DNA of 64,000 nt from Pirellulales bacterium (GTDB lineage Bacteria > Planctomycetota > Planctomycetia > Pirellulales > PALSA-1355), in the NCBI GenBank assembly GCA_963733035.1, contig CAVTBU010000003.1:21635-85634 (forward strand), read 5' to 3'. Shown one piece after another: positions 9,066-64,000 of the stretch. A program made the translations under genes and the position numbers. Each line of letters opens with the position of its first letter. Within the stretch, counting starts at the first letter, position 1. The notes under the pieces were generated by a model. It saw only the letters and a program-made list of their open reading frames with translations. It made no database searches and was not told the DNA's origin.

Positions 9066-9686
9066 GTGGAAATCACCGAGGTCCGCATTAAGCTCATGGA
9101 AGAGGCCAGCGAACGGTTGCAAGCCTTCTGCTCAATCACGTTCGACAATAGCTTCGTCATCCGCGATCTGAAAATCATCGACGGCGTCAACGGTCCGTTC
9201 GTGGCGATGCCAAGTCGCAAACTCACGGCCCACTGCCCGCATTGCGGATGCAAGAATCACCTCCGCGCGGCGCATTGCAATCAATGTGGCGGGCGTTTGA
9301 GCGAGGACCGCTTGGTGAAGGATGAGGATGGGCGGGCCAAGCTGTATGCCGACATTGCGCACCCGATCAATTCTGCCTGCCGCGAAATGATTCAGGACCG
9401 CGTGATTACGGAGTTTCGATTGGAACTCGATCGGTCGAAGATGCCGGGCTACAAGTCGACTTACGACGACTACGACCACGACGTGGACCTCCCGCCGCCC
9501 AGCAGGGAATCGCGCGAGCGGGAGGCTGCCCAGCGCAAGACGACGCACGTGCAACCGGCCGAACCACAGCCGCGCAGCCCGCACAAAAAGGCCGTGCCGC
9601 AGCCGCAAGCAGGCAACTCGGTCCCGCATTCCGCTCCTTCGCAGCAAGGCGCGAACCGCGACGGATTCGGGGCGGGAATCTTTTAG
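9066..9686 (+). CDS. spoVG: SpoVG-family nucleic-acid-binding protein with Zn-ribbon insertion and disordered tail
   Basis: [33 protein letters not shown] and DIAHPINS. Inserted CPHC...CNQC. RBS AAGGAG before the GTG start. Confidence 0.9.
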
Positions 9687-23090: not shown

Positions 23091-23250
23091 CGACGAACCC
23101 CAGGCACCGCCAGACTGTCCAGCTAGTTGGTTTTACCCAGTGAACCAATTGCCATTTGCGGAGTAGAATTGAATACGTGGCCGAGCCGAAACGAGCTCGC
23201 ATCAGGCTACGTTGAACCCTTCAGGAACAACCAATAGGAAACGAGCGCCT

Positions 23251-24602
23251 GTGACAGAAAAAAACCGGGTTGAGAGCGTCGCCAGCGAGGCGGCCATTCT
23301 CGTCGGAGTGTTACTTCCACATCAAGAATTTCACGGCGATCCGCTGGAGGAATTGGAGGGGCTGGCCACGACGGCCGGTTCGCGCGTGGTTGGTCAATTG
23401 ACTCAACGCCGTCAGACGCCCGACATCACCACCTATCTTGGCAAGGGAAAGGTGGATGAACTCAAGCAACTGGTCGGAGCGACCGACGCCGATGTCGTGT
23501 TGTTCGACAACGATCTGACGCCCGCTCAAACCCGGAATCTCGAAGAAGCCTCCGGCATCAAGGTGCTCGATCGGAGCGAGCTGATTCTCGATATCTTCGC
23601 CAGCCGCGCGAGACGTACCAGGCCCGACTGGCCGTCGAGCTCGCGCAACTGCAATACTCGCTACCGCGGCTGAAGCAGATGTGGAATCACTTGTCGCGGC
23701 TCAAGATGGGCATCGGCATGCGTGGTCCTGGCGAGAAGCAGCTGGAAGTCGACCGCCGACTGGTCGAGAAGAAGATCAGCGAATTACGAGGCGAACTCAA
23801 GGCGATCGAACAGCGCAAGGAGCGCGAAGTTGCGGCCCGCAGCGAACGGATGACCGTTTCGTTGGTCGGCTACACGAACGCTGGCAAGAGCACGCTGCTC
23901 AACAAGCTCACGGGGGCCGACGTGCTGGCCGAGAACCGGCTGTTCGCGACGCTCGATACGCGGACCCGGCGGTGGCAACTTCCCGGCTGGGGACCGGTGC
24001 TGCTGAGCGATACAGTTGGTTTCATCCGCGACTTGCCCCACCATTTGATCGCCAGCTTCAAGGCCACGCTCGAAGAGGCACGGCATGCCGACCTGCTGCT
24101 GCACGTGGCCGATGCCAGCAATCCGGCGGCGCTGGAGCAGATTGCCGTGGTCTATCAGGTGCTCGAGGAGTTGGGCATCAAGGAGAAGGATACGCTGCTG
24201 GTGCTCAACAAGACCGACGCTACGGATCGAGGCCAGCTGGCAGCGCTTCGTAGTCGCTATCCGCACGGGCTGTCCGTCAGCGCCTACACCGGAGACGGCA
24301 TCGACAAGCTGTCCGCGGCCGTCAGCCAGGTGCTCAGCAACAACTTCCTCGACATCGACGTGGAAACCGGGGTGGAAAATGGCCGCTTGTTGGCGTTGCT
24401 TTCAAACCATGGCGAAGTGCTTTCCAAACGCTACACCGACTCTCGCGTGATCGTGCACTGCCGAATTCCAGAGCGCGCGATGGGACATCTCCGCGGCACG
24501 GGTGCGGACATCCGCCCGCATGGCCGTGCGGCGATGGGTTCGAACGGCGCAAACGGTCACGCACCGCCTCATTATGCCAACGGGCAGCAAGCCAGCCAGT
24601 AG
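23251..24602 (+). CDS. hflX: GTPase HflX (one frameshift at ~23612)
   Basis: LILDIFASRA continues as RTYQARLAVELAQLQYSLPRL after adding one base. Then RGPGEKQLE, GYTNAGKSTL, LFATLD, DTVGF and NKTD. Confidence 0.92.
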
Positions 24603-51629: not shown

Positions 51630-53018
51630 ATGAAACTGTCTTTCTTTTTGCGCCCTCTCGATCGCTATCGTCCCCAGGTTTTTCAGGTCGTTGTTGTCGC
51701 CGTGATGTTTGCCATCGGCGTGTGGGGCCATAGGAGCCATTGGCAATTCACGCCCCACGCACACGCCGACTTTGCAGGCAACGAACAGGGGCCCGGTGAC
51801 GCCAAACCCAGTTCCGCCCTCGTGGAGGGTGCCAAATCCGGTGCCGTGGACGCGCCAGACGCGTCCCTTATCGAGTTTCCGACGCCCGAGTCGGTTGAGG
51901 AGTTGGGGGTCAGAACGCTAAGAGTGGTGCAGCGCCCGGTATCGCGCGAAGTAACGGCGGCCGGCGTGGTCACGTACGAACCGACTCGCTTGGCCCAGCT
52001 ATCGGCGCACGTGGCCGGTACCGTGTGGCGCGTCGAGAAACAAGTTGGCCAGACGATTCGCGCCGGCGACGTGTTGGCGATCATCGATGCTCCGGCCGTC
52101 GGCGATGCCAAGGCGGACTTTCTGCATTCGATTGCCGACGTCCAGATGTGTGAAATTGCCGCCGACCGCCTGAGGGGCTTTGCGAAGGGGGAAGTGCCCT
52201 ATCGCCAAATCCAAGAGGCGGAAACGGCGCTCCGCAAGGCCCGGGTCGACCGGTTCAACGCCCAGCAAGCGTTGATTAGCCTTGGTCTGCCGATCAATCT
52301 TGACGAGTGGCAAGCCCTATCGGAGGACGAGTTGCAGCGCAGGATCAAGTTTCTCGGGCTGCCTCCTTCGCTCGTTTCGCAACTCGATCCGAATTCCACG
52401 ACGGCCACGCTGCTGCCCCTGGTGGCACCGTTCGACGGTATCGTAATCGGCCGTGAGCTTAGCAAGGGTGAGGTTGTTTCGCCTGGAAATGGGCACTTTG
52501 AAATCGCCGACGTCAGCAAGATGTGGATCGTCTTGCACGTGCGCGAGCAGGACGTTGACGACCTGCAGCTGGGGCAGACCGTCACCTTCCGTTCCGGCAG
52601 CGCGTCGGCTACCGGCGCGGTCTCGTGGATGAGCACCGCCGTTGATGAAAAAACCCGTACCGTCGAGGTGCGCTGTGAAACTCCCAACCCCGAGATTGCC
52701 GACGCCGAGGGGAAATCGACCGGCAAACGCCTGTTGAGGGCGAATCTATTTGGCGTGGGTTCGATACAAGTGAGCCGGAGCCAGTCGGCCTTGGTTGTTC
52801 CGACCAAAGCCGTGCAGCGCAGCGCGTTCGGGCCGATTGTGTTTGTTCCGCGGGGTCCCAAGACATTTGCCGTGCAGCCGATTCAGTCGGGCGTGGTCAA
52901 TACCGACGACACCGAAATCGTGGCAGGCCTGACGCTGGCCGATTCGGTCGTCGTCGATGGTAGCCACATCCTCAAAGCGGAACTGCAGCGGTTGAGCGCG
53001 GCGGAACAATCTCCGTGA
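51630..53018 (+). CDS. czcB: RND efflux periplasmic adaptor (CzcB/CusB-like)
   Basis: N-terminal TM, lipoyl halves VAGTVWRVEKQVGQTIRAGD and APFDGIV...GEVV, IADVSKMW, VDEKTRTV and GLTLADSVVVDGS. Confidence 0.85.
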   Translation: MKLSFFLRPLDRYRPQVFQVVVVAVMFAIGVWGHRSHWQFTPHAHADFAGNEQGPGDAKPSSALVEGAKSGAVDAPDASLIEFPTPESVEELGVRTLRVVQRPVSREVTAAGVVTYEPTRLAQLSAHVAGTVWRVEKQVGQTIRAGDVLAIIDAPAVGDAKADFLHSIADVQMCEIAADRLRGFAKGEVPYRQIQEAETALRKARVDRFNAQQALISLGLPINLDEWQALSEDELQRRIKFLGLPPSLVSQLDPNSTTATLLPLVAPFDGIVIGRELSKGEVVSPGNGHFEIADVSKMWIVLHVREQDVDDLQLGQTVTFRSGSASATGAVSWMSTAVDEKTRTVEVRCETPNPEIADAEGKSTGKRLLRANLFGVGSIQVSRSQSALVVPTKAVQRSAFGPIVFVPRGPKTFAVQPIQSGVVNTDDTEIVAGLTLADSVVVDGSHILKAELQRLSAAEQSP

Positions 53019-53164
53019 TGCATGTTGTCGCGCTGGGCGACGCCAATACAGTACAAACATAGTGAACGAGATAAGTCGGGCGAGTCTGGCGGCCTCCCGA
53101 CAGATTTGAAAGAACCCTTTCGCGGCTGCCACCGTGCAGCCCTTCACTCCGACTTTCGATCCCC

Positions 53165-56100
53165 ATGGCCGCCCGCATCATCATCTGGTCGCTTAACTAT
53201 CGTTGGTTGGTGGTCGCGATCGCAATCGTCTTTGCCATTGTCGGAGTCTTTTCCGGTCGGTCGTTGAATTTCGACGCCTTTCCGGACACGACGCCCGTTC
53301 AAGTGCAGATCAATACGCCGGCTCCGGCCCTGGTGCCCGAAGAGATCGAGCGGCTGATCACGTTTCCGGTGGAACTCGCGATTAGTGGCATGGCGGGCTT
53401 GGAGCAGGTGCGCTCGGTCTCGCAATTTGGCGCGTCGGCGGTGATCGCCACCTTTCGCGATGGGACCGACGTCTATCGCGCGCGACAGCAAATTAATGAG
53501 CGGCTGAGCACGGTCGAAGTGCCCGAGGGCATCGAGCGACCGACGATGGGGCCGGTTGCCACGGGTTTGGGAGAAGTTTTTCAATACACCCTTACCAGCC
53601 GCACGCTCGATGCGACAGAGCTGCGCACGCTGCACGACTGGGTGATCAAGCCCAAGATGCGGGCGGTGAGCGGTGTTGCAGAGGTCAACTCCTGGGGCGG
53701 CCTGGAGAAGGAATATCAGGTACGCATTGATCCGACGAAGTTACTGCGTCATGAAGTTTCGTTCGACGAAGTCGTGGATGCGGTTCGTGAGAACAACCTG
53801 AACGTTGGGGGCGGCAACATCAACGAAAACGCCACCGGCGAGATGTTGCTCGTGCAGGGCGTGGGCCGGACGTCCAGCGTCGACCAGATCGCGAACATCG
53901 TCGTTACCGCCAAGCAGGGCGTGCCGATCCGCGTGGCCGACGTGGCCGACGTCGTGATCGGTCACCAGTTGCGCAAAGGGGCCGTGACCGCCAACGGACA
54001 AGGCGAGGTGGTGCTGGGACTCGGGTTCATGCTGATGGGCGAGAACAGCTATGCCGTGACCCATCGTCTGAAAGACAAAATGGAACAAGTCAAGCAGACG
54101 CTGCCTGCCGGGGTCGAAGTCGCCACGGTGTATGACCGCACGCGGCTGGTCGACCAGGTGATTGCCACGGTGCGGGCTAACCTGTTCGACGGGGCACTGC
54201 TGGTTACGGCCATCGTGTTTATCTTTCTGGGCAACCTGCGGGCCGGGCTGATTGTGGCGCTGGCGATACCGTTCTCGATGCTGTTTGCTTTTTCCGGCAT
54301 GCTGCAACTGGGCATCGCCGGAACTCTCCTGAGTTTGGGGGCGATTGACTTTGGCATCGTGGTGGATAGTTCGCTGGTCGTGATTGAGAGCATTCTGCGG
54401 CGAATCGCCCATTTGGGCGACAACGATCCGGCGCTGGTCCGCGACGCCACGATCGAAGTGCGGCAGCCCACGACGTTTGGGCAATTGATCATCATGATCG
54501 TCTACCTGCCGATTCTCAGTTTGCAAGGGGTCGAAGGCCGCATGTTCCGGCCGATGGCCTTGACGGTTATCCTGGTGCTGATTGGCTCGTTGATTTTGTC
54601 TCTGACGCTGATGCCCGTCTTGGCGAGCTTCCTGTTGCCGCGACGCATCGAAGAAAAAGATCCGTTGATCGTGCGGTTGGCAAAGCGGATCTATCAGCCA
54701 CTGTTGGGTGCAGCGCTCAAGTCAAAACTTGCGGTGCTAGGTTTCGCTACCGGCGGACTCGCGACGGCGGTCTATTTGGCGATGGGGCTGGGAACCGAGT
54801 TCGTGCCTCGACTGTCAGAGGGCGACGTCGTGGTTGGCGTCCTGCGACCGGCCGGAACCCACTTGTCCGAGGCGATCGCCATTAACACCCGCATGGAGCG
54901 TCTGCTGCTCGAACACTTCCCGGACGAAGTCGATCACTTGTGGTGCCGTATGGGTGCGCCCGAGGTTGCTACGGACGCGGGCGACGTGCAGATATCAGAG
55001 ATCTTCGTGTCGCTCAAGCCGCGCGAACAATGGAGCAAGGCCCAATCGCAGGCCGAACTGATGGGGCTGATGAACGGGGTTATCGGCCGATTTCCGGGCC
55101 AGACCGTGTGGCTTACCCAGCCAATCGAGCAGCGCATCAATGAGATGGTTTCCGGCGTCCGAGCGGACGTGGCCCTAAAGCTATTCGGCGACGACATCGA
55201 CACGCTGGTGGCCAAGGGACGCGAACTCGAAAAGGCGTTGGGCTCGGTGCCTGGCTGTGTCGATCTGGCGACCGAGCAGATCAAGGGGCAGCCAATCCTG
55301 CAGATCAAAGTCGACCAGGACAGCATCGCGCGATATGGCCTCTCGGCGCGGACCGTGCTCGACCTGGTGGAGTCGGTGTCGAGCAAACCGCTGGGGGAAG
55401 TCATCGAAGGGCAACTTCGCTTTCCGCTTTCGGCCCGCTTGCCCGAATCGATGCGTGACAGTCCGGAGACAATAGCCAACATCATGATGTTGACGCCAAC
55501 TCGCGAACAGTTGCCGCTGTCGATGCTGGCCGATGTGAAGCGTGCCGAGGGGCCGAAAATGATTTCGCGCGAATGGAGTAAGCGGCGGATCACCGTGCAA
55601 TGCAATGTGCGCGGACGGGACATCGGCAGTTTCATTGCCGAGGCCCAACAGCGCGTGTCCAACGGCGTGCAGCTTCCCTACGGCTATTCGATCGAATGGG
55701 GCGGCCAGTTCGAAAACATGCAGCGGGCGCAACAGCGGTTGGCGGTGGTGGTGCCCTTGGCGCTGCTGTTGATCATCTTGCTGTTGTACGTGACGTACAA
55801 GAATGTCACGGACACGCTGTGCGTGTTCACCAGCGTGCCGCTGGCCTGTATCGGTGGCATTGGACTGCTTTGGCTGCGGGAAATGCCTATCTCGATTTCC
55901 GCGGCGGTCGGATTCATTACGCTTTCGGGCGTCTCGGTGCTGAATAGCATGGTCTTTGTTTCGGCGCTGCGAGACCTGCTGCGGCAAGGCGTGGATCCAG
56001 GCGAGGCGATCTCGACTGCCGCGATGACGCGTCTCCGCACTGTGATGATGACCGCGCTGGTGGCCAGCGTTGGGTTCGCGCCGATGGCGCTTTCCAACGG

Positions 56101-56242
56101 GATGGGCGCCGAAGTGCAGCGCCCGCTGGCTACGGTAGTGATTGGCGGCGTCATTTCCAGCACGGTGATGACCCTGTTCGTGATGCCCGCCCTGTACCGG
56201 TTGCTCGTGCGAGCCCGCTCCGAGCCCGTGGTGGTTGCCTAA
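53165..56242 (+). CDS. czcA: Heavy-metal efflux RND permease (CzcA/CusA family)
   Basis: DAFPDTT, GLGEVFQY, TM4 GAIDFGIVVD...IE, EGRMFRPMA and GAEVQRPLATVVIGG in a 1025-aa ORF. Confidence 0.92.
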   Translation: MAARIIIWSLNYRWLVVAIAIVFAIVGVFSGRSLNFDAFPDTTPVQVQINTPAPALVPEEIERLITFPVELAISGMAGLEQVRSVSQFGASAVIATFRDGTDVYRARQQINERLSTVEVPEGIERPTMGPVATGLGEVFQYTLTSRTLDATELRTLHDWVIKPKMRAVSGVAEVNSWGGLEKEYQVRIDPTKLLRHEVSFDEVVDAVRENNLNVGGGNINENATGEMLLVQGVGRTSSVDQIANIVVTAKQGVPIRVADVADVVIGHQLRKGAVTANGQGEVVLGLGFMLMGENSYAVTHRLKDKMEQVKQTLPAGVEVATVYDRTRLVDQVIATVRANLFDGALLVTAIVFIFLGNLRAGLIVALAIPFSMLFAFSGMLQLGIAGTLLSLGAIDFGIVVDSSLVVIESILRRIAHLGDNDPALVRDATIEVRQPTTFGQLIIMIVYLPILSLQGVEGRMFRPMALTVILVLIGSLILSLTLMPVLASFLLPRRIEEKDPLIVRLAKRIYQPLLGAALKSKLAVLGFATGGLATAVYLAMGLGTEFVPRLSEGDVVVGVLRPAGTHLSEAIAINTRMERLLLEHFPDEVDHLWCRMGAPEVATDAGDVQISEIFVSLKPREQWSKAQSQAELMGLMNGVIGRFPGQTVWLTQPIEQRINEMVSGVRADVALKLFGDDIDTLVAKGRELEKALGSVPGCVDLATEQIKGQPILQIKVDQDSIARYGLSARTVLDLVESVSSKPLGEVIEGQLRFPLSARLPESMRDSPETIANIMMLTPTREQLPLSMLADVKRAEGPKMISREWSKRRITVQCNVRGRDIGSFIAEAQQRVSNGVQLPYGYSIEWGGQFENMQRAQQRLAVVVPLALLLIILLLYVTYKNVTDTLCVFTSVPLACIGGIGLLWLREMPISISAAVGFITLSGVSVLNSMVFVSALRDLLRQGVDPGEAISTAAMTRLRTVMMTALVASVGFAPMALSNGMGAEVQRPLATVVIGGVISSTVMTLFVMPALYRLLVRARSEPVVVA

Positions 56243-56644
56243 ACCGAGGCGGCAAGCGGTTCACCAACGCTTCTGATGACACCATGCCACTTGGCGGCAT
56301 AGAAATCTGACCGCCCGCGGTGTTGCTGTCGTCGCTCCGCACCTTGGATATTCCGCCACGGAATGGCCAGAAAGAACAGATGCAGTTCAAGTGCGGTTCC
56401 TCGAAATCCGATGCATCAAGTGGCGATTTGCGCGTTTCTGCCAATCCGGCGAGCGCGTACGTCGTCAACGCCCTCCGAATCGGCAAAGCTGTCCTAGACT
56501 GCCGACGTTCGCGATCAAAAGCCTGCCCTCGTCCCGCCTCGATTCACTTCGCATCGTTGCCTGAGTGCCTGGCTGACAGTTCGACGCGTGTTCGAGATGC
56601 GCGGCACGCCGCTGCTTGCGCCTGAGTTGGGTAGGGAAGCCCAG

Positions 56645-58739
56645 ATGCATTCACAACGTCCACTTGCCAGCAAGTTGCTGATGGCAATCGCCATTGCGAT
56701 CGCCTATCCATGCGCTCTTGAGGCACAGCAAGCGGGCGAGAATGCCCCGGGGCCAGCAGCCGCGGCCACCGATTCAACACAATCGGAAGCGCAATTGGGC
56801 GGCGGCCTCTCGACGGACATGAAGCTCGACGACCTCGTCAAACAGGACGTCGTCGTTCCGGCATTGAGCCAGGTGGTCGAAACGGCTGAACGCCAGGTCA
56901 GCACCGTGGGCCGAACGCCGGCGGCGGTGTTTGTCATCACGCAAGAGATGATCAAGCGGAGCGGCGCACGCTATGTGCCGGAAGTCCTGCGAATGGCTCC
57001 GGGGGTCTCGGTGGCCAAGATCGATTCCAGCACGTGGGCGATCACGGCGCGCGGTTTCGAAGGACGGTATGCGAACAAGCTGCTGGTGCAGATCGACAAC
57101 CGCGTTGTCTATTCGCCCACGACTTTCGGCGGCGTCTTTTGGGACGTGCAGTACCTGCCGCTGACGGACATCGAGCGGATTGAAGTGATTCGCGGTCCGG
57201 GAACCACCACCTGGGGTTCAAACGCCGTGAATGGCGTGATCAACATCATCACCAAGAAGGCCAGCGATACGCAAGGGCCAATGATTCAGTCGGGAGGCGG
57301 TAATCAGGAGCAGGATTTCAATACCGTGCAATACGGTAGCAAGTCGGGTGATATTGCCTGGCGAGCTTGGGGCCAGCAGTTTGATCGGAACAAGGGCTGG
57401 AGTCCTAACGATATTCAGGACCAATGGCGCCAACAACGCACGGGCTTCCGGGCCGATTGGAGTTTGTCGCGCGAGGAGAATCTGACCGTTGAGGGCGATC
57501 TCTACAACGGCTACGAGGGACAGCAGTTCACCAATACGATTCGTGATCCTCCCGGCCGAGCGACGGTGGCCGACCAAATCCATGTGAGCGGTGGCGACAT
57601 CCTGCTGCGCTATGACCGCATGCAGGACGAAGACACCGGCTGGAAGTGCTGGGCGTACTACGACAAGATGCGGCGCAATAATACCGCGTTTGCGTTTACC
57701 CAGGACATGTACGACCTGGACTGTCAGTACCAGTTCAAGACCGGAGAGAATCATAGTTGGATTGCCGGGGCAAACTACCGACTGGTGCAGGACTTCACGC
57801 GAGGCAGCTTTTCGTTTTTCATGACGCCGCCGTCGTTCACGACCAATTGGGCGAGTGTCTTTGCGCAAGACACGATTACCCTCGTTGACGAGTACATGTA
57901 TTTCACCGTCGGCGTTCGGTTGGAATACAACACGTTTGGCGGGTTCCAGCCCGAACCAACCGCGCGCCTCCTGATCTTGCCGAGTGAGCGAGAAAGCTTG
58001 TGGCTTGCCGTCTCGCGCAGCGCGAAATCCGACGCGGTGGGACACAGGGGTGAATGAACGTGTTTACGCCGGGGGAAACTCCTTCTTCAACGCGCAGGGT
58101 AACCCCAACCTGAGAGCCGAGGGGTTGGTGGCCTACGAGATCGGCTATCGTGCCGCCCCGACGGACGATTTCACCTGGGATATTGCCGCGTATTTCAACG
58201 ACTACAACAGTCTGCAGGGCTTCGGCAATCCGGGCACGCCATACGTCATTCCGCCGCCGCCGAACGCGGTCGTGATTATTCCGGTGCCGTTTGCCAACAA
58301 CACACGAGCTCAAACCTGGGGTGCTGAGCTGACGGCCACGTACGAATTCACCGAGAAGTGGCGGCTGACCGGCAACTACACGGTATTCGAGGCGAATGCA
58401 CAATCATCGGAGCCGGCACTGATCGACACGACGGTGCGAATCATCGAAGGGGGGACGCCACACAACCAGGTTTATCTGCGGTCGTCATGGGACTGGGGCA
58501 GCAACGTTCAGTTTGATTTGATCGGTCGGTACATGGATCGGGTGACGGCGCTCGACGTTCCCAAGTACATCGAAATGGACACCGTTCTTTCGTGGCACGC
58601 GTCACCGGCATTGGACCTGAGCCTGGTCGGACAGAACCTGCTGCAGGCGCACCATCTCGAATACACGGATTGGCAAACCGGCATGCAATCGACGCAAGTG
58701 GTTCGGGGCGTCTATGGAATGTTGACCTGGATGCACTAG
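56645..58739 (+). CDS. TonB-dependent receptor (plug plus barrel; frameshift at ~58015)
   Basis: Signal peptide, plug motifs PAAVFVITQEMIKRSG...LRMAPG and IERIEVIRGPG...NAVNGVINIITK, barrel motifs GNPNLRAE...YEIGYR and GQNLL. The two ORFs join as AVSRAARNPTR if one GC dinucleotide is restored at 58013-58018. Confidence 0.88.
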
Positions 58740-58835
58740 ATTTCCACGGGGCAATGGACTGTTTTGGAATCTACCGCCAGATATTTTGAGCAGATCCCTC
58801 GAAGCGCGGTGCGCGTTGCCACACTGGCGAGCGCC

Positions 58836-59417
58836 ATGCGGTGGTGCGCGCAGCATGCGCCCTGCCGGCTGCTGCTGAGCGGGGTCCTCATTTGTCTCCT
58901 GGCGCAATTCGCAAGTGCCCAACCCGACGTCATCAATCGAGAGCACACGCTGAAGGCTCTCTTTATTTACAACTTTGGCAGCTACGTCGAGTGGCCCCCG
59001 GCGGCGTTTAGTAGCGACGGTCGCTCGTTCGTCATTGGCGTGCTTGGATCTTCACCGGTGGAGTCGACACTACGGGAAATCGCGGCCACCAAGACAATCA
59101 ACGGACGGCGCATCGCGATCGAAAGGTTCAACTCGGCAGCCGCGGTTCGGCCGTGCCAAATCCTGTTTGTGGCCGGTGAAGTTAGCCCAAGCGAACAGCA
59201 GGCAGCCATCCAGCGACTGGGCGATGCACCGGTATTGGTCGTGGGGGAGTCCGCGGGTTTTGCGCAACGTGGCGCCGCGGTGAACTTCTTTATCGAGGCC
59301 AATAAGATTCGATTCGAGATCAACGTGGACGCCGCGCGGCAGCGCGAATTGAAGATCAGTGCGAAGCTCCTGGCGCTGGCCAAAATTGTGGGTCAAGGCA
59401 GCGCCGCACGCCGTTAG
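58836..59417 (+). CDS. yfiR: YfiR-family periplasmic protein
   Basis: Signal peptide, KALFIYNFGSYVEWP, CQILFV and RFEINVDAA...LKISAKLL.LA. Start could be as early as 58764. Confidence 0.85.
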   Translation: MRWCAQHAPCRLLLSGVLICLLAQFASAQPDVINREHTLKALFIYNFGSYVEWPPAAFSSDGRSFVIGVLGSSPVESTLREIAATKTINGRRIAIERFNSAAAVRPCQILFVAGEVSPSEQQAAIQRLGDAPVLVVGESAGFAQRGAAVNFFIEANKIRFEINVDAARQRELKISAKLLALAKIVGQGSAARR

Positions 59418-59432
59418 ATTTGGATCCAAGTT

Positions 59433-61118
59433 ATGCGCAGTTATAAAGACCTGGCCATCAATACGAAACTGACGCTGTTGGTCGTGCTATCCGGCAGCGC
59501 GGCGTTGATGCTGTCCTGCGTCGCGTTTGTGATCAACGATATTCGCATGATCCGTTTTTCCATGATCAATGAGATGTCCACTTTGGCCGAGGTGCTCGGG
59601 TCGAACAGCACTGCGGCCCTTAGCTTCGACGATGCGAAAACGGCCGGCGAACTATTGATGTCGCTCGAAAAACAGCCCGACGTCGAACTGGCCTGTATCT
59701 ACGACGCAAGCGGCCGCGTGTTTGCCACCTTCTACCGTGGTGTTTCGCCCCCGATCGCTCCCCCGGCGCCGCCTCCGACGGGCTATGAGTTTACCGCCGA
59801 CGGCTACTTGGACGTGACGAGACGGATCGACCATGATGGTCACAAGCTTGGCACGATTTACTTGCACTCAAGCATGGGCAAGCTCTACGACCAGGTCTTC
59901 TGGTATATCAACATCGTCGCGGTGGTCATGATCGGGTCGCTGGCGGCGTCCATCGCATTTTCGTCACGACTTCAGCGGGCGATCTCGACGCCAATTCTGC
60001 AACTGGCCGACGCCGCCGAGCAGGTTTCGGCGGAAAACAACTATGACATTCGCGTAACGAAGATTGCCGACGACGAGCTGGGAACTCTCTACGACCAGTT
60101 CAATGCAATGTTGGAACAAATCCAGCAACGCGACGCCGCGATCAAGCGGGCCAACGATGAACTAGAGGCCAAGGTCGACAAGCGCACGCTGGAACTTTCG
60201 AGCGCCAACCAGGAACTGAAACACGAAATTTCAGTTCGTTTGCGCGCGGAAAAGGAACTCGCCGCGACACAGCAGCAGCTAATGGACTCGGCGCGGCGGG
60301 CGGGGATGGCCGAGATCGCCACCGGCGTGCTACACAACGTGGGCAACGTCTTAAACAGCATCAATGTATCCGCCACACTGGCCTCAGACCGCTTGCGGCA
60401 GTCGAAAGTGAGCGACCTGGCTCGCGTGGTGCAACTCATTGAGCGGCATCACGACGATTTGGCGGCGTTTATCACGGCCGATCCCAAAGGCAAGCAGCTG
60501 GTGCCCTTTCTGGGATTGCTTTCCACGCACCTGGCTGACGAGCGCGTGGACATCCTCAAGGAGCTCGAGCTGCTCAGTTCGAAGATCGACCATATCAAGG
60601 CGATCGTTTCCACGCAGCAATCCTATGCCGGGGTTTCGGGCGTGACGGAGACGGTCGACGTTGGAACGCTGCTCGACGACGCCATGAAACTCAATTCCGC
60701 ATCGCTCGAGCGCCACAACATCCGTATTCACCGCGAGTACGGCGATTTGCCGCTCGTGCGGCTCGACAAGCAAAAGACGCTGCAGATCCTCGTCAACTTG
60801 ATCAAGAATGCCAAGGACGCCTGCGCCGAATCACGTGAGCCCGATCGTCAGGTAATACTCAAAACTCGGTTGGCCGAGGGCGGGACGATACAGATCCAGG
60901 TCATCGACAACGGCGTCGGCATTCCGCGCGATTCGCTAACACAGATCTTTTCACACGGCTATACCACCAAACGGACGGGCCATGGATTCGGACTGCATAG
61001 CTGCGCCAACGCTGCTCAAGAACTGGGAGGCTCGCTGATGGCCTACAGCGAAGGCGTTGGCCGAGGCGCAACGTTTGTCCTGGAACTTCCCTTCGAGCCA
61101 GCGGAGGTCATGGCATGA
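59433..61118 (+). CDS. Membrane sensor histidine kinase (CHASE8-like periplasmic domain, HAMP, HisKA/HATPase)
   Basis: TM, then LAEVLGSNSTAALSFDD...ACIYDASGRVFA, second TM, HAMP DELGTLYDQFNAML, H-box EIATGVLHNVGN, N-box NLIKNA, G1 DNGVGI and G2 GHGFGL. Confidence 0.92.
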   Translation: MRSYKDLAINTKLTLLVVLSGSAALMLSCVAFVINDIRMIRFSMINEMSTLAEVLGSNSTAALSFDDAKTAGELLMSLEKQPDVELACIYDASGRVFATFYRGVSPPIAPPAPPPTGYEFTADGYLDVTRRIDHDGHKLGTIYLHSSMGKLYDQVFWYINIVAVVMIGSLAASIAFSSRLQRAISTPILQLADAAEQVSAENNYDIRVTKIADDELGTLYDQFNAMLEQIQQRDAAIKRANDELEAKVDKRTLELSSANQELKHEISVRLRAEKELAATQQQLMDSARRAGMAEIATGVLHNVGNVLNSINVSATLASDRLRQSKVSDLARVVQLIERHHDDLAAFITADPKGKQLVPFLGLLSTHLADERVDILKELELLSSKIDHIKAIVSTQQSYAGVSGVTETVDVGTLLDDAMKLNSASLERHNIRIHREYGDLPLVRLDKQKTLQILVNLIKNAKDACAESREPDRQVILKTRLAEGGTIQIQVIDNGVGIPRDSLTQIFSHGYTTKRTGHGFGLHSCANAAQELGGSLMAYSEGVGRGATFVLELPFEPAEVMA

Positions 61119-62809
61119 ACCAGCCTCCGGCGCACCGCATCCTGGTGATCGACGACCAGGCGGCGATTCACGAAGACTACCGCAAGGTTCTCAGTAAGCA
61201 GGCCGCCAGCTCGACGTCGGCTCTCGAGCGAGCCGCGGCGGAGCTGTTTGACGACGACCCTGAAACGATCGTTACTTGGGAAGGATTTGAAGTTGACTCC
61301 GCCTTTCAGGGACAAGAAGGACTTGAGCTGGTCGAGCGGGCCGTCGCCGAGCGACGACCGTATGCGCTGGCATTCGTCGACATTCGCATGCCGCCAGGCT
61401 GGGACGGCGTGGAAACCGTGCGTCGAATCTGGGAGGTCGACCCGGAAGTATTGGTCGTCATTTGCTCGGCCTACTCGGATTACTCCTGGCAGGAGATGGT
61501 CCGGGAATTGGGAAGAAACGACCGTTACCTGATTCTGCGAAAGCCGTTCGACAATATCGAAGTTCGCCAGTTTGCGATGGCGCTCACCGAACGCTGGAGC
61601 CAGTCGCGAACGGACGAACTAACCGGGCTGCTAAACCGACGTGCCCTTGGCAGCTATCTTGATCTCGAATGGAAGCGTTCGGTGCAGCAACGCCTACCGC
61701 TATCATGTGCGATGCTCGACCTGGATCATTTCAAACGAGTCAACGACTCATTCGGCCATCAGGCGGGCGATGACGTTCTGAAGCAAGTGGCGCATGCGCT
61801 ATCGGCGAAGTGTCGTGCCAGCGACTCAATCTATCGGTACGGCGGCGAGGAAGTTTGCGTGCTGTTGCCCCAAACGTCCGAACAGGACGCAGTCGCTTGG
61901 GCCGAAAGAGCCCGCCGGGCCATCGATGCGACTCCGTTCCTGCTGGGCAATCGCCAGCTGCGGGTGACGGTCAGCATCGGAGTTGCCGAACGGTCGGCCG
62001 AGGATGGCACTCCCGAACTCCTGATCGATCGCGCAGACCAGGCGCTAATCCTGGCTAAGTCCGCTGGACGCAATCGTGTCTGTGCCAATTCGACCGTAGG
62101 CACGGCGGGCAGTCAGGCCCACAATCTGTGGGCTGAAGTCCCACTGGCCGAATTGATGAGCACGACGTTTGTCGCCCTGCGATCGTCTGCAACCGTGGCC
62201 GACGCCTTGCAGTTATTGGTGCATTCTCCAATGGGTGCGGTCCCTGTCGTGAATGCAGAGGGTCAACTGGTCGGTGTTCTGGCAGAACAGGATTTGCTGG
62301 GTCTGGTGCCGACCGGCAAACAATTGCAGGAGCCCGTCGAGAATATCATGAGTGAGGAGTTTGAGACCCACGCGTTCGACTCCCCCGCTTCCGCAGTTGT
62401 CGCCTCGCTTGAGCGCCCGGGCGTAAACTTCGTCTTTGTGCTGCGCGACGGACGCCCGCTTGGCATCGTCAGTCGTGGCAGCCTATTGCACTATTGGTCC
62501 AAACGCTCCGTCGTGCAGACGAACGTGAACGCGGCTGGCGGTTTATGTCTATTCGGCCAGGTTGAACCCGCCCGCCTGACTCGTTGTGCGGAGCGTTTGG
62601 CCGAATTGGCGGCACAAATACTGCAAGAAAGCCGGCGTTCGACGGTCGAGTCTGGGCAGCTGTCGATTGCACAGCTTGCAAGTCTTCAGTCGCTCGTGGG
62701 CAACACGTGGGAATTCTTGCTGCGTGACAACCTTCCGCCGGTTGTCGGGCAAGGGCCGGATTTCGGTGGTTTTGGGGCACCCGACGCACCACTGGCCCCT
62801 TTGGGGTAG
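61115..62809 (+). CDS. Response-regulator diguanylate cyclase with C-terminal CBS pair (REC-GGDEF-CBS-CBS)
   Basis: REC: ILVIDD, FVDIRMPPGWDG, KPF. GGDEF: DELTGLLNRR, DLDHFKRVNDSFGH..GD, RASD I-site, RYGGEEV. CBS: VPVVNAEGQLVGVL and LGIVSRGSLL. ATGA overlap with the kinase. Confidence 0.9.
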   Translation: MNQPPAHRILVIDDQAAIHEDYRKVLSKQAASSTSALERAAAELFDDDPETIVTWEGFEVDSAFQGQEGLELVERAVAERRPYALAFVDIRMPPGWDGVETVRRIWEVDPEVLVVICSAYSDYSWQEMVRELGRNDRYLILRKPFDNIEVRQFAMALTERWSQSRTDELTGLLNRRALGSYLDLEWKRSVQQRLPLSCAMLDLDHFKRVNDSFGHQAGDDVLKQVAHALSAKCRASDSIYRYGGEEVCVLLPQTSEQDAVAWAERARRAIDATPFLLGNRQLRVTVSIGVAERSAEDGTPELLIDRADQALILAKSAGRNRVCANSTVGTAGSQAHNLWAEVPLAELMSTTFVALRSSATVADALQLLVHSPMGAVPVVNAEGQLVGVLAEQDLLGLVPTGKQLQEPVENIMSEEFETHAFDSPASAVVASLERPGVNFVFVLRDGRPLGIVSRGSLLHYWSKRSVVQTNVNAAGGLCLFGQVEPARLTRCAERLAELAAQILQESRRSTVESGQLSIAQLASLQSLVGNTWEFLLRDNLPPVVGQGPDFGGFGAPDAPLAPLG

Positions 62810-62831
62810 ATTTTCAAAAGAGGGCGCCATC

Positions 62832-64000
62832 GTGAGTCAAGAAAACCGCCGAATTCTAGTCATCGACGACAACGAGTCGATTCACGCCGATTTTCGCAAG
62901 ATCCTCATGGCCGACGGCCGGTTGACCGAGGCCGTGGAAGATGCGGCGGCTGCCTTGTTTGACGACGACGGCACGCACAAATCTGCCCGCGTGGACTTCG
63001 ACCTCACGTCGGCCCGACAAGGGGAAGAAGGGCTGGCGCTTGTGCAGCAAAGTGTTGCGCAGGACCGTCCGTTTGCCCTGGCATTCGTCGACGTGCGCAT
63101 GCCGCCGGGTTGGAATGGTGTGGAGACAGTGCGAAGAATTTGGGAAGTTGACAGCCGCATCCAAATCGTAATTTGCACCGCCTATTCCGACTATTCGTGG
63201 CACGAGATGATTGACGAACTCGGCGAGAAGGACAATCTGTTGATCCTCAAGAAACCGTTCGACATCATCGAGGTCCGGCAGCTCACCTCGGCGCTGGTTG
63301 TGAAGTGGAATCTAGCTCAAAAGGCCAACCGCACCGTTCGCGAGTTGGAGAACATGGTGCAGGAACAGATGCGCGCCGTGCATAGCGCACAGGAGGAAAC
63401 GATCTATCGTTTGGTCAGGGCATCGCTGTGCCGTGACGAGGAGACCGGCTCGCATATCCGCCGCACGGGACTGTGCAGCGAACTACTGGCCGCGACCGCC
63501 GGCTGGGACGCCCAACGCGTGAATCAGATTCGGTTGGCGGCACCCATGCATGATGTGGGTAAGATTGGCATTCCCGACGCGATCTTGCGCAAACCCAGCG
63601 AATTGACCGATCAGGAAGTCCAGACGTTGCGCGAGCATACGATTTTAGGCGCCAAGATGCTCGCGGGATCCACGTCGCCCGTGCTGCGGATGGCACATGA
63701 AATCGCGATGTACCACCACGAGCGTTGGGACGGGACCGGCTACCCCACGGGGCTGAGCGGCGAAGCGATACCAGAAGCGGCGCGGATTGTCGCGATCGTC
63801 GACGTCTATGACGCCTTGACCCATGATCGGGTCTACCGCAGGGAAATGCCCGAAGAGAAGGTCATCCAGATAATGCAGGATGGTCGCGGCAAGCATTTCG
63901 ATCCGCGGCTCCTCGATGTGTTCATGTCCGTGTTGCCAGAAATGCGGGCCATCGCGCAAGCCACTCCCGACGACGAGAATGATAACGTCGTGGCAAAATG
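62832..64000 (+). CDS. Response-regulator HD-GYP phosphodiesterase (REC-HD-GYP), 3'-truncated by the window edge
   Basis: Absent from the ORF track because there is no stop in the window. From GTG 62832 the frame reads RRILVIDDNESIH...FVDVRMPPGWNG...KPFD...ETGSHIRR...MHDVGKIGIPD...HHERWDGTGYP...VDVYDAL...HFDP. Confidence 0.92.
   Translation, partial: MSQENRRILVIDDNESIHADFRKILMADGRLTEAVEDAAAALFDDDGTHKSARVDFDLTSARQGEEGLALVQQSVAQDRPFALAFVDVRMPPGWNGVETVRRIWEVDSRIQIVICTAYSDYSWHEMIDELGEKDNLLILKKPFDIIEVRQLTSALVVKWNLAQKANRTVRELENMVQEQMRAVHSAQEETIYRLVRASLCRDEETGSHIRRTGLCSELLAATAGWDAQRVNQIRLAAPMHDVGKIGIPDAILRKPSELTDQEVQTLREHTILGAKMLAGSTSPVLRMAHEIAMYHHERWDGTGYPTGLSGEAIPEAARIVAIVDVYDALTHDRVYRREMPEEKVIQIMQDGRGKHFDPRLLDVFMSVLPEMRAIAQATPDDENDNVVAK

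Follow-up and report, generated by a model that had tools for sequence, protein, structure and literature searches.

Five genes on the + strand, extending from position 56645 to the end of the 64,000-nt stretch of Pirellulales DNA analysed here (the window), encode a TonB-dependent receptor, a periplasmic YfiR-like protein, a membrane histidine kinase and two response regulators that carry opposing c-di-GMP enzymes. We regard it as slightly less than an even proposition that these genes constitute a single sensory unit that spans the envelope and governs the level of c-di-GMP. An earlier note, made from the letters of the sequence, had described five co-oriented and closely spaced genes, and this layout is present as claimed, with gaps from -4 to 96 nt. 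Pfam searches likewise recovered every domain that had been assigned to the five proteins. The features of the cassette, taken from the open reading frame (ORF) map and from Pfam searches, are as follows.

56243..56644, putative promoter region of the cassette, 402 nt between an RND pump gene and the receptor gene (ORF map)
56645 (ATG) to 58739 (TAG), + strand, TonB-dependent receptor of the TOL_0244 type, in two frames (Pfam, NF053590)
56816..56896, + strand, N-terminal Ton-box-like motif of the receptor, DMKLDDLVKQDVVVPALSQVVETAERQ, before the plug (alignment of 61 receptor N-termini)
58836 (ATG; or 58764, TTG) to 59417, + strand, YfiR-like periplasmic protein of the TOL_0243 family, 193 aa with signal peptide
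59433..61118, + strand, membrane histidine kinase (CHASE8, HAMP, HATPase_c), in the order TM1, CHASE8 (59565-59864), TM2, HAMP (59970-60128), coiled stretch, H-box, ATPase domain (60771-61097)
60333-60335, + strand, His301 of the kinase H-box GVLHNVGN, an H-box unchanged in 12 of 12 loci from relatives
61115..62809, + strand, REC-GGDEF-CBS response regulator (Pfam)
62832 (GTG) to 63998 at the window end, + strand, REC-HD-GYP response regulator, 389 aa present (Pfam)

The spacings between these genes are, in order, 96 (or 24), 15, -4 and 22 nt. The negative value is the overlap of the kinase stop and the cyclase start in the letters ATGA, which had also been claimed and which was confirmed letter by letter. 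The last gene is truncated, as the window end is also the contig end. A sigma-70 consensus scan of 56243..56644 returned no + strand site, a consensus that says little for a planctomycete.

Conservation of the gene order

The order of the cassette is colinear in 13 of 14 relatives' loci. A wider survey took in 80 loci from other organisms, with at least seven phyla named in the record titles. The gene immediately upstream of the YfiR-like gene encodes a receptor in 76 of them, and the gene immediately downstream encodes a CHASE8-type sensor in 78; when 34 of these 78 sensors were sampled with Pfam, all 34 carried CHASE8. Given that the order is kept to this extent both among relatives and elsewhere, chance does not account for the arrangement. 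The two families also occur together in a phylum sample of 301 genomes, in which 43 carry both the YfiR-like family and the receptor family (the latter counted at 1e-60), five only the former, six only the latter and 247 neither.

The expectation that similar gene strings occur in other bacteria is thus borne out for the trio of receptor, YfiR-like protein and CHASE8 kinase. This trio is already catalogued as the linked NCBIfam models NF053590 to NF053592, and the gene string itself is not new. Members share the common gene order, and here two of the three proteins, the YfiR-like protein and the kinase by its sensor, pass the curated cut-offs, whereas the receptor pieces together reach about 538 bits, below 645, and the outputs are REC-GGDEF-CBS and REC-HD-GYP proteins. 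The models are annotation only, and our literature search found no experimental study of the trio, in agreement with the earlier statement that a mechanistic description is lacking.

The YfiR-like protein and the sensor kinase

The second gene product matches DUF4154 (PF13689) at 1.7e-42 and passes NF053591 with 153.8 bits (154.6 in the genome search; cut-off 125). Its signal peptide, judged by eye, ends at ASA before QPD and has no lipobox. The family profile finds YfiR in the PDB at 3.2e-07, and a structure model of the protein (pLDDT 88.6) has YfiR chains as its top fold matches (E 3.8e-09, TM 0.71-0.77), so the proposed periplasmic YfiR-like protein is supported by both profile and fold. 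A profile search of the genome revealed no second DUF4154 protein. On the equivalog model for true YfiR, NF053586, the protein scores 41.2 bits, below the cut-off of 85. When positions were mapped by hand, the YfiR disulfide Cys145-Cys152 was found to be replaced by A and N, with only the Cys110 equivalent retained, and the residues that contact YfiB were found to be partly changed in the family consensus (R60 to E, H177 to S and R171 to Q). The FExN stretch with E163, a proposed contact with YfiN, is conserved in the family.

The kinase carries CHASE8 (4.4e-17), HAMP (7.2e-10) and HATPase_c (1.7e-18) domains by Pfam. Residues 9-232 pass the 'YfiR-like protein-associated' model NF053592 (222.5 bits, cut-off 194), and the DgcN/YfiN model NF007423 aligns to residues 22-253 (6.3e-26). 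The CHASE8-HAMP module is therefore homologous to that of the cyclase YfiN, as the earlier assignment of a YfiN-like periplasmic sensor had it, and the kinase is the only CHASE8 protein that a profile search found in the genome. Pfam gives no HisKA match for this kinase; the domain is likewise missing from all five planctomycete cassette kinases sampled, versus its presence in 29 of 29 from other phyla. His301, within the H-box, is the putative phosphorylation site.

In Pseudomonas, the OmpA-like lipoprotein YfiB sequesters YfiR, which otherwise represses the cyclase YfiN through its periplasmic domain. The cassette resembles this YfiBNR system (TpbB/DgcN; P. aeruginosa and E. coli) and the HmsCDE system of Yersinia in placing a YfiR-fold protein beside a CHASE8-HAMP membrane sensor in a pathway that ends in c-di-GMP. 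However, it differs from both by having a TonB-dependent receptor upstream instead of YfiB, by fusing CHASE8-HAMP to a histidine kinase rather than to GGDEF, by placing the cyclase on a separate receiver protein with a hydrolase added, and by the loss of Cys145-Cys152 along with the low NF053586 score. The statement that the window holds no YfiB is upheld: the two OmpA-domain matches in the genome are on contigs C6 and C10, and none is on the cassette contig. No yfiB was recognised elsewhere in the genome either.

The receptor need not be the input of such a system. The YfiR-like protein and the kinase could sense the periplasm or envelope by themselves, as YfiR senses redox, in which case the receptor might be a target transcribed along with them, or a scaffold, or a gate for nutrients with no bearing on the signal. 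According to PMC4887326, YfiR of P. aeruginosa senses independently of YfiB. Moreover, the four loci with no receptor directly upstream (L052, L081, L094 and L105) and the five of 48 YfiR-like genomes with no receptor-family match at the threshold used fit this possibility. We nevertheless judge it improbable in view of the adjacency in the other 76 loci, the 43 genomes that have both families against the few that have one, the loss of the redox disulfide, and the retention of the cassette receptor as the only one of its kind in these genomes.

A frame break in the receptor gene

Pfam identifies both a Plug (2.6e-19) and a barrel (4e-15) in the receptor, but the earlier note had overlooked that there is no single open frame. 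The gene reads in two frames (A, 56588/56645..58057; B, 57984..58739), and an alignment with the intact orthologues L014, L020 and L021 reveals that 2 bp are absent between 58013 and 58014. The two pieces score 390.5 and 147.4 bits on NF053590, over profile positions 15-386 and 381-602. This is by far the best family for the receptor, though the sum stays below the cut-off, which is exceeded in only 12 of 49 planctomycete genomes, many intact copies falling below it.

If the 2-bp gap is real, then the system could be decaying, with the receptor a pseudogene or phase-variable and the kinase branch deprived of its outer-membrane input. The identical gap occurs in L017, from another genus, and in L016, the last of the three close relatives, a G run is instead interrupted by a gap of 1 bp, such that the receptor is broken in all three of the closest loci while the other four genes are intact. 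Measured against L017, however, the receptor gives dN/dS of 0.05 before the break and 0.14 after it (dS 0.74 after), and this purifying selection on the downstream part excludes an old shared pseudogene. The hflX gene in the same window is also frame-broken, at a CGCGCG run, although only 4.7% of window positions are within 3 nt of a CGCGC-type 5-mer. Split receptor or kinase genes are furthermore concentrated in one MAG series (6 of 19, versus 1 of 61 others among the 80 loci, by reading). We found no public contig covering 57972-58059. Because hflX is broken in the same sequence context within the same window, the break is probably an assembly fault, and decay of the system appears unlikely.

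Receptor type and TonB

With its Plug, beta-barrel and a Ton-box-like motif before the plug, the receptor has the architecture of a TonB-dependent transporter. The likeness is to the general Ton-box consensus. Across the 61 aligned N-termini, receptors from other phyla have MSLEDLMN..VTSVSKR at this position, and two residues, L32 and V46, do not vary in 60 sequences. Of four non-cassette receptors of the same order, none showed the motif. It is what a TonB client would carry, and it counts against a TonB-free reading of the system.

The receptor is also the only Plug match in this genome, which is 92% complete, and no TonB was detected there: PF03544 gave no match, TIGR01352 reached at best E 0.118, and a clade HMM based on six planctomycete TonB C-termini reached at best 0.47 over all six frames. 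TonB_C is similarly without a match in any of 10 cassette-bearing genomes of the same family. A genome at this level of completeness whose only TonB-dependent receptor is present without a detectable TonB is a new observation, and the receptor is under purifying selection despite this (dN/dS 0.05 to 0.14). The genome does encode four ExbB/ExbD clusters with TPR proteins, and a 2025 report (PMC12204202) suggests that, in this group, new force transducers of the vWA type lie next to clusters like these; an unrecognised energiser is possible on these two grounds. Across the phylum sample, TonB_C is absent from 11 of 48 YfiR-like genomes versus 84 of 301 overall. The cassette thus exhibits no preference for TonB-less genomes, and for this reason the receptor may be an ordinary energised importer in most hosts.

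Import followed by periplasmic sensing is a strong rival to the reading in which the receptor replaces YfiB, even if we rate it as somewhat unlikely when taken by itself. An energised receptor would import a small molecule, which the YfiR-like protein would bind before docking on, or leaving, the CHASE8 kinase. Binding-protein-dependent kinases of this kind are known from LuxP-LuxQ and TorT-TorS. In its fold the YfiR-like protein is similar to a single lobe of a substrate-binding protein, and the next fold matches of the model after YfiR are indeed substrate-binding proteins (5z6v at 7.5e-07 and 3lft, with L-Trp bound). Vitamin B6 and L-Trp both bind in a surface pocket of YfiR from P. aeruginosa, though with Kd values of 35 and 77 mM (PMC4887326). 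Import would also agree with the conserved motif before the plug, the ExbB/ExbD motors and the presence of TonB_C in 37 of the 48 YfiR-like genomes. It is opposed by the failure of all three models to find a TonB C-terminal domain in this genome, and by the same result in 10 of 10 cassette genomes of the family.

Predicted receptor contact and a proposed mechanism

A complex prediction for the receptor and the YfiR-like protein, run on the intact orthologue pair from L030, scored 0.54, while the best of three controls scored 0.00. The runs agreed on at least 51% of contacts, with partner pLDDT of at least 82, and returned no interface. In calibration, 116 of 157 solved complexes and 2 of 215 mismatched pairs came up to the pass mark, and scores at or under 0.60 comprised 18 of the 157 solved complexes and both passing mismatches. 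By this calibration, passes in the band of 0.54 are wrong in more cases than not, except where the pairing was likely beforehand. We know of no solved receptor-YfiR complex, and hence the pass is unlikely to reflect a memorised structure. The prediction weakly suggests that the receptor binds the YfiR-like protein directly, a contact that would be new here. It leans slightly away from import, though such contact would be compatible with import too. That the receptor stands in YfiB's place, as the earlier note proposed, is therefore plausible with one modelled contact in its favour, yet unproven.

If the receptor does take this role, then the YfiR-like protein would act as the go-between. It would bind CHASE8 and keep the kinase in a single state of signalling, as YfiR does with YfiN, until a change of state in the receptor draws it off the kinase. 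The simplest trigger would be the binding of a ligand outside the cell, with release of the N-terminal Ton-box-like segment into the periplasm. A receptor that draws off the YfiR-like protein would thereby play YfiB's part, and TonB-driven import would be unnecessary. Once freed, the kinase may alter how far the two receivers are phosphorylated, on Asp89 and Asp87, and the cyclase and hydrolase may act jointly on c-di-GMP, for example to create a pulse or a set-point, with the RxxD site and the CBS pair of the cyclase perhaps adding feedback and metabolic input. In its most specific form, the YfiR-like protein would capture the released segment in TonB's stead and so release the CHASE8 kinase, resulting in TonB-independent signalling across the outer membrane by a receptor that, in TonB-less Pirellulales, where it has no other of its type beside it, would act purely as a sensor with no role in transport. 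In the present cassette the signal would drive the paired cyclase and hydrolase. We offer this version as a speculative one that is probably wrong in at least some part.

Known signalling by TonB-dependent receptors proceeds from FecA-type N-terminal domains to anti-sigma factors, and FecA signalling needs TonB, in contrast to a cassette whose genome has no detectable TonB. The likeness to FecA-FecR-FecI is limited to an outer-membrane receptor of the TonB-dependent type heading a signalling pathway. The cassette receptor has no STN domain, Plug being the only Pfam match in its N-terminal piece (E <= 0.01). Apart from the RND pump gene upstream, the neighbourhood comprises only the five genes, among which Pfam finds no anti-sigma or ECF sigma domains, and a soluble protein of the periplasm would instead carry the relay to a kinase. 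In its parts, the cassette is thus distinct from the FecIRA route, as claimed. Should the YfiR-like protein indeed shuttle between receptor and kinase, this would represent a second general Gram-negative route for reading the outside without importing the signal, and it would carry the principle behind YfiBNR, in which a repressor in the periplasm is sequestered at the outer membrane, well outside the proteobacteria. The TonB-less Pirellulales, which have a single receptor and a single cassette but no TonB, provide a natural test case.

The c-di-GMP output enzymes

The REC-GGDEF-CBS protein (GGDEF 3.7e-44, CBS 2.3e-15, REC 1.6e-10; Pfam) has Asp89, the I-site RASD and the active-site motif GGEEV at 61841-61855. 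The REC-HD-GYP protein (HD_5 9.7e-37, REC 1.1e-09; Pfam) retains Asp87, HDVGK and HHERWDGTGYP intact. Their receiver domains are close paralogues (60% identical, E 7e-60), and these features support the claim of paired, opposing c-di-GMP enzymes. The putative use of such similar receivers to feed an opposing cyclase and hydrolase is a further new feature. RpfC-RpfG (REC-HD-GYP), PleC/DivJ-PleD and Wsp-WspR (REC-GGDEF) share receiver-controlled enzymes with intact Asp, HD/GYP, GGEE and RxxD motifs, whereas in the cassette both enzymes appear behind one kinase, with near-duplicate receivers and a CBS pair on the cyclase. To our knowledge, there is no characterised case of GGDEF and HD-GYP paired behind one kinase, and the arrangement would offer a simple circuit for studies of c-di-GMP set-points or pulses.

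The HD-GYP branch is optional, being complete in only four of 14 relatives' loci; REC-GGDEF follows the kinase in 11 of the 14. A GGDEF ORF comes after the sensor in 43 of the 80 loci from other organisms, and when 33 of the genes next to the sensor were sampled with Pfam, GGDEF was confirmed in 10, which came from three phyla. The cassette ends in c-di-GMP enzymes in soil Acidobacteriota and Planctomycetota.

Gene arrangement and domain content

The window covers C3:21635-85634 of the source genome (G000). The cassette lies at the end of the window, which is also the end of contig C3, and it is preceded by a co-oriented efflux pair. Pfam confirmed each domain named in the earlier note, and the five cassette genes were found on the + strand as described there, with the ATG of the cyclase gene overlapping the TGA of the kinase gene as ATGA.

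Features at the end of the window (Pfam E-values in brackets)
51630..53018, +, membrane-fusion protein (HlyD-type adaptor of an RND pump)
53165..56242, +, AcrB-type RND pump, co-oriented with the cassette
56645 (ATG) to 58739 (TAG), +, TonB-dependent receptor (Plug 2.6e-19, barrel 4e-15)
58836 (ATG)..59417, +, YfiR-like protein of 193 aa with a signal peptide (DUF4154 1.7e-42)
59433..61118, +, kinase (CHASE8 4.4e-17, HAMP 7.2e-10, HATPase_c 1.7e-18)
61115..62809, +, REC-GGDEF-CBS protein (GGDEF 3.7e-44, CBS 2.3e-15, receiver)
from 62832 (GTG), +, REC-HD-GYP protein, 389 aa to the contig end (HD_5 9.7e-37, receiver)

The catalytic and acceptor motifs of the cassette enzymes are intact (RASD-x5-GGEEV, HDVGK, HHERWDGTGYP and D(I/V)RMP), and the H-box of the kinase, G(V/I)LHNVGNVLN, is identical in all 12 of 12 relatives' loci. 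A scan for promoters and terminators gave no signal over the shuffled background. A 402-nt gap separates the pump from the cassette, and the RND pair (51630-56242) is not kept beside the cassette in relatives, the sole distant RND match being in locus L022. The earlier observation was right on the genes, but it overlooked a frame break in the receptor, which is described below.

Recurrence of the gene string

NCBIfam holds three linked models for the trio of receptor, YfiR-like protein and CHASE8 kinase, so that as a gene string it is already known to curators. The YfiR-like protein (NF053591, ‘TOL_0243 family YfiR-like periplasmic protein’) scores 153.8 bits against a cut-off of 125, and the kinase (NF053592, ‘sensor histidine kinase, YfiR-like protein-associated’) scores 222.5 against 194. 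The two pieces of the broken receptor gene score 390.5 and 147.4 bits with NF053590 (‘TOL_0244 family TonB-dependent receptor’), for which the cut-off is 645. Our search of open-access papers and preprints, in which CHASE8 papers were judged by title, found no experimental or mechanistic study of the trio; for DUF4154 it returned the YfiB-YfiR structure paper and none pairing DUF4154 with TonB. What is local to the present cassette is a TonB-less background with a single receptor, a contact prediction of weak support, and paired opposing c-di-GMP enzymes.

The earlier note guessed that similar gene strings occur elsewhere, and a neighbourhood survey bears this out. Among 41 sampled genomes (relatives, with the 92% complete G000 included), 13 have the YfiR-like family, but none of the three other genomes in the genus of G000 does. 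The cassette is colinear in 13 of the 14 relatives' loci fetched, the exception being L025, where the receptor is weakly similar and divergently oriented. REC-GGDEF lies behind the kinase in 11 of the 14, and a complete REC-HD-GYP gene comes next in four.

A wider survey used one genome per species and the family alignment as query, and the best 80 of 478 confirmed loci were kept; as these were picked by likeness to this YfiR-like subfamily, they describe the subfamily and not all DUF4154 proteins. Their titles span Planctomycetota, Acidobacteriota, Verrucomicrobiota, Bacteroidota, Proteobacteria, Armatimonadota, Fibrobacteres and others, and they include Terrimonas and Pedobacter isolates (L087, L088 and L105). 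Among these best 80, a receptor ORF lies immediately upstream of the YfiR-like gene in 76 (exceptions L052, L081, L094 and L105), and a CHASE8-type sensor immediately downstream in 78 (misses L083 and L084, the latter stopping at a contig end). When 34 of the 78 sensors were sampled with Pfam, CHASE8 was found in every one and HAMP in 33, and many were hybrid kinases with GAF, PAS, REC or Hpt domains. In 301 genomes sampled from the phylum, each 90% complete or better, the YfiR-like family occurs in 48 and the receptor family (E <= 1e-60) in 49: both in 43, the YfiR-like family alone in five, the receptor alone in six and neither in 247. Three genomes of one genus (G141, G240 and G310) carry a TOL_0244-family receptor of 648-682 bits, above the curated cut-off, and lack a YfiR-like match, and these could serve as a natural ‘receptor only’ control.

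Likeness to YfiBNR and the predicted receptor contact

The family profile of the YfiR-like protein matches the PDB entry of YfiR at 3.2e-07. For the protein encoded in the window, the AlphaFold structure (pLDDT 88.6) has YfiR chains as its top fold matches (3.8e-09, with 20-22% identity and a TM of 0.71-0.77 on the target). Lower in the ranking are substrate-binding proteins, a result in favour of a strong rival reading, somewhat less likely in our view than the leading one, in which the receptor would bring a ligand into the periplasm and the YfiR-like protein would sense it there. The YfiN-like sensor that the earlier note assigned to the kinase is supported: besides the CHASE8 match, the DgcN/YfiN model aligns with residues 22-253 at 6.3e-26. 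G000 has a single DUF4154 and a single CHASE8, and no OmpA-domain gene was found on contig C3, in agreement with the earlier statement that the window has no yfiB.

Xu et al. 2016 (PMC4887326) list S57, R60, A89, S146, E163, L166, I169, R171, R175 and H177, among others, as YfiB contacts of YfiR, and F151, E163, I169 and Q187 as its proposed YfiN site. These residues were mapped by hand onto the alignment of the family profile with the PDB YfiR. By this mapping, the FExN stretch with E163 is kept in the YfiR-like family, F151 is V, the YfiB contacts R60, H177 and R171 are replaced by E, S and Q, respectively, and Cys145 and Cys152 are absent. The cassette would work like YfiBNR in part, but it is not a YfiBNR member: both YfiB and a fused cyclase are missing.

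The earlier note had proposed, as a check, a structure prediction of the YfiR-like protein with the receptor. This was run on the intact orthologue pair of locus L030 (by tblastn, they share 73% and 61% identity with their counterparts in the window) as mature forms with a 60-row alignment each, and it went part of the way: the verdict was ‘weak support’, with complex scores of 0.54, 0.54 and 0.50 against 0.00 for the best of three controls. In calibration, 116 of 157 solved complexes attained this mark, as did two of 215 mismatched pairs; passes with scores of 0.60 or less comprise only 18 of the 157 solved complexes, yet include both passing mismatches. At least 51% of contacts agree among the runs and partner pLDDT is at least 82, with no interface given. 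Because conserved adjacency makes contact fairly likely beforehand, and with the complex prediction added, we judge that direct binding of the YfiR-like protein to the receptor is at most about evenly balanced.

The interpretation in the earlier note was a reasonable hypothesis, and we retain it, tentatively, as the leading one: the receptor would stand in for YfiB, the YfiR-like protein would act as go-between, and the kinase would address the c-di-GMP enzymes, all of these functional steps being ones that we infer. FecA, LuxPQ, TorTS, RpfCG, PleD and WspR provide comparison systems.

Outputs behind the sensor

The receivers of the REC-GGDEF-CBS and REC-HD-GYP proteins are 60% identical (7e-60) and have in common an unusual insert, and therefore their sequences fit a single kinase serving both. 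After the sensor, 43 of the best 80 of 478 loci have a GGDEF ORF. Pfam was applied to 33 of 71 genes lying next after the sensor, and in this sample the gene was REC-GGDEF(-CBS) in 4/4 Planctomycetota, REC-PAS-GGDEF-EAL in 5/5 Acidobacteriota and REC-GGDEF-EAL in the Armatimonadota locus, the remaining loci having REC-kinases, single receivers or unrelated genes. A c-di-GMP output recurs behind trio sensors, and the HD-GYP branch is a lineage-specific addition.

The receptor and TonB

The cassette receptor is the sole Plug-domain match in G000, and cassette receptors are the only such matches in nine of the 13 cassette genomes. None of three models detected a TonB C-terminal domain in G000: it was sought with PF03544 (none at 0.001), with TIGR01352 (best E 0.118) and with an HMM of six planctomycete TonB C-termini (best E 0.47, unfiltered, six frames). 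The genome has four ExbB/ExbD clusters adjoining large TPR proteins and unknown ORFs (C5:876k, C6:860k, C7:528k and C7:620k; L120-L123), where a search for a hidden TonB found that the unknown neighbours match no Pfam or NCBIfam family. The layout recalls TPR-tolQ-tolR-tolR clusters beside which, according to a 2025 paper (PMC12204202), vWA-type force transducers are proposed in this group; these proposed transducers are a caveat on the TonB-less picture.

Among the 41 relatives, TonB_C occurs in G012, G032, G033, G037 and G039 only, adjoining a non-cassette receptor in G012, G033 and G037, and it is absent from all 10 of 10 cassette genomes of the family of G000 (f1). This scarcity agrees with Speth et al. 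2012 (PMC3422733), which reports TonB and its receptors in just four planctomycete genomes. In the phylum sample, TonB_C is present in 217 of 301 genomes and in 37 of the 48 with the YfiR-like family. The cassette was considered as a marker of TonB-less genomes and rejected, TonB_C being absent from 11 of 48 cassette genomes versus 84 of 301 overall. Families f20 and f1 have TonB_C in 2/24 and 1/24 genomes, respectively. TonB-lessness is a trait of the lineage (class and family) and not of the cassette, which occurs with or without TonB.

Cassette receptors have a common N-terminal motif ahead of the plug, MSLEDLMN..VTSVSKR, with the planctomycete form MKLDDLVKQD-VVVPALSQ-VVETxxRQ; two positions are invariant across 60 sequences, and the motif was not seen in 4/4 non-cassette receptors of the same order. 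The motif resembles a Ton box.

The frame break in the receptor gene

The receptor gene is read in two frames, one to 58057 and the other from 57984, and alignment with the intact orthologues of L014, L020 and L021 places the loss of 2 bases between 58013 and 58014, within the TCTCGCGC stretch. The identical 2-bp gap occurs in L017, a locus of another genus, and L016 has a different gap of 1 bp in a G run. Compared with L017, dN/dS is 0.05 before the break and 0.14 after it (dS 0.74 after the break), values that show the post-break part to be still under purifying selection; an old pseudogene shared with L017 is excluded on this ground. A programmed frameshift was also rejected: the 0-frame sequences at the break are unlike in the window and L017, and no shared slippery site was seen. 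Parts of the window occur in eight public runs, with no RNA run listed among them; contigs of the four that were compared with the window give no coverage of 57972-58059.

We consider that the break is probably an artefact of assembly or base calling, because of three observations. First, hflX, a conserved GTPase gene (23173-24602, +), is likewise split (23173..23673 and 23460..24602). Second, its break near 23605-23612 falls in a run of CGCGCG, a context that the receptor break shares; both breaks are no more than 3 nt from a CGCGC/GCGCG 5-mer, which by a post-hoc count is true of only 4.7% of positions in the window. Third, by our own reading of the best 80 of 478 loci, split receptor or kinase genes are concentrated in one MAG series (6/19; L028, L029, L033, L043, L046 and L081), with 1/61 outside it (L064).

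Variant arrangements and other observations

In two homologues (P0016 and P0058; 342 and 364 aa) the YfiR-like domain is duplicated in tandem. In two Verrucomicrobiota loci (L070, 3746-7944, and L071, 3752-7935) a tandem pair of paralogous receptor genes precedes the YfiR-like gene. The order is altered in L094 (7746-13740, Lysobacterales), where the string opens with the YfiR-like gene and a hybrid CHASE8 kinase, and one long ORF call downstream contains a receiver-kinase and a TonB-receptor barrel. Elsewhere in the window, a SpoVG homologue (9066-9683, +) is 206 aa long, and the 82-position Pfam profile is stretched across residues 1-118, a spread that points to an insertion and to a long extension at the C-terminus.
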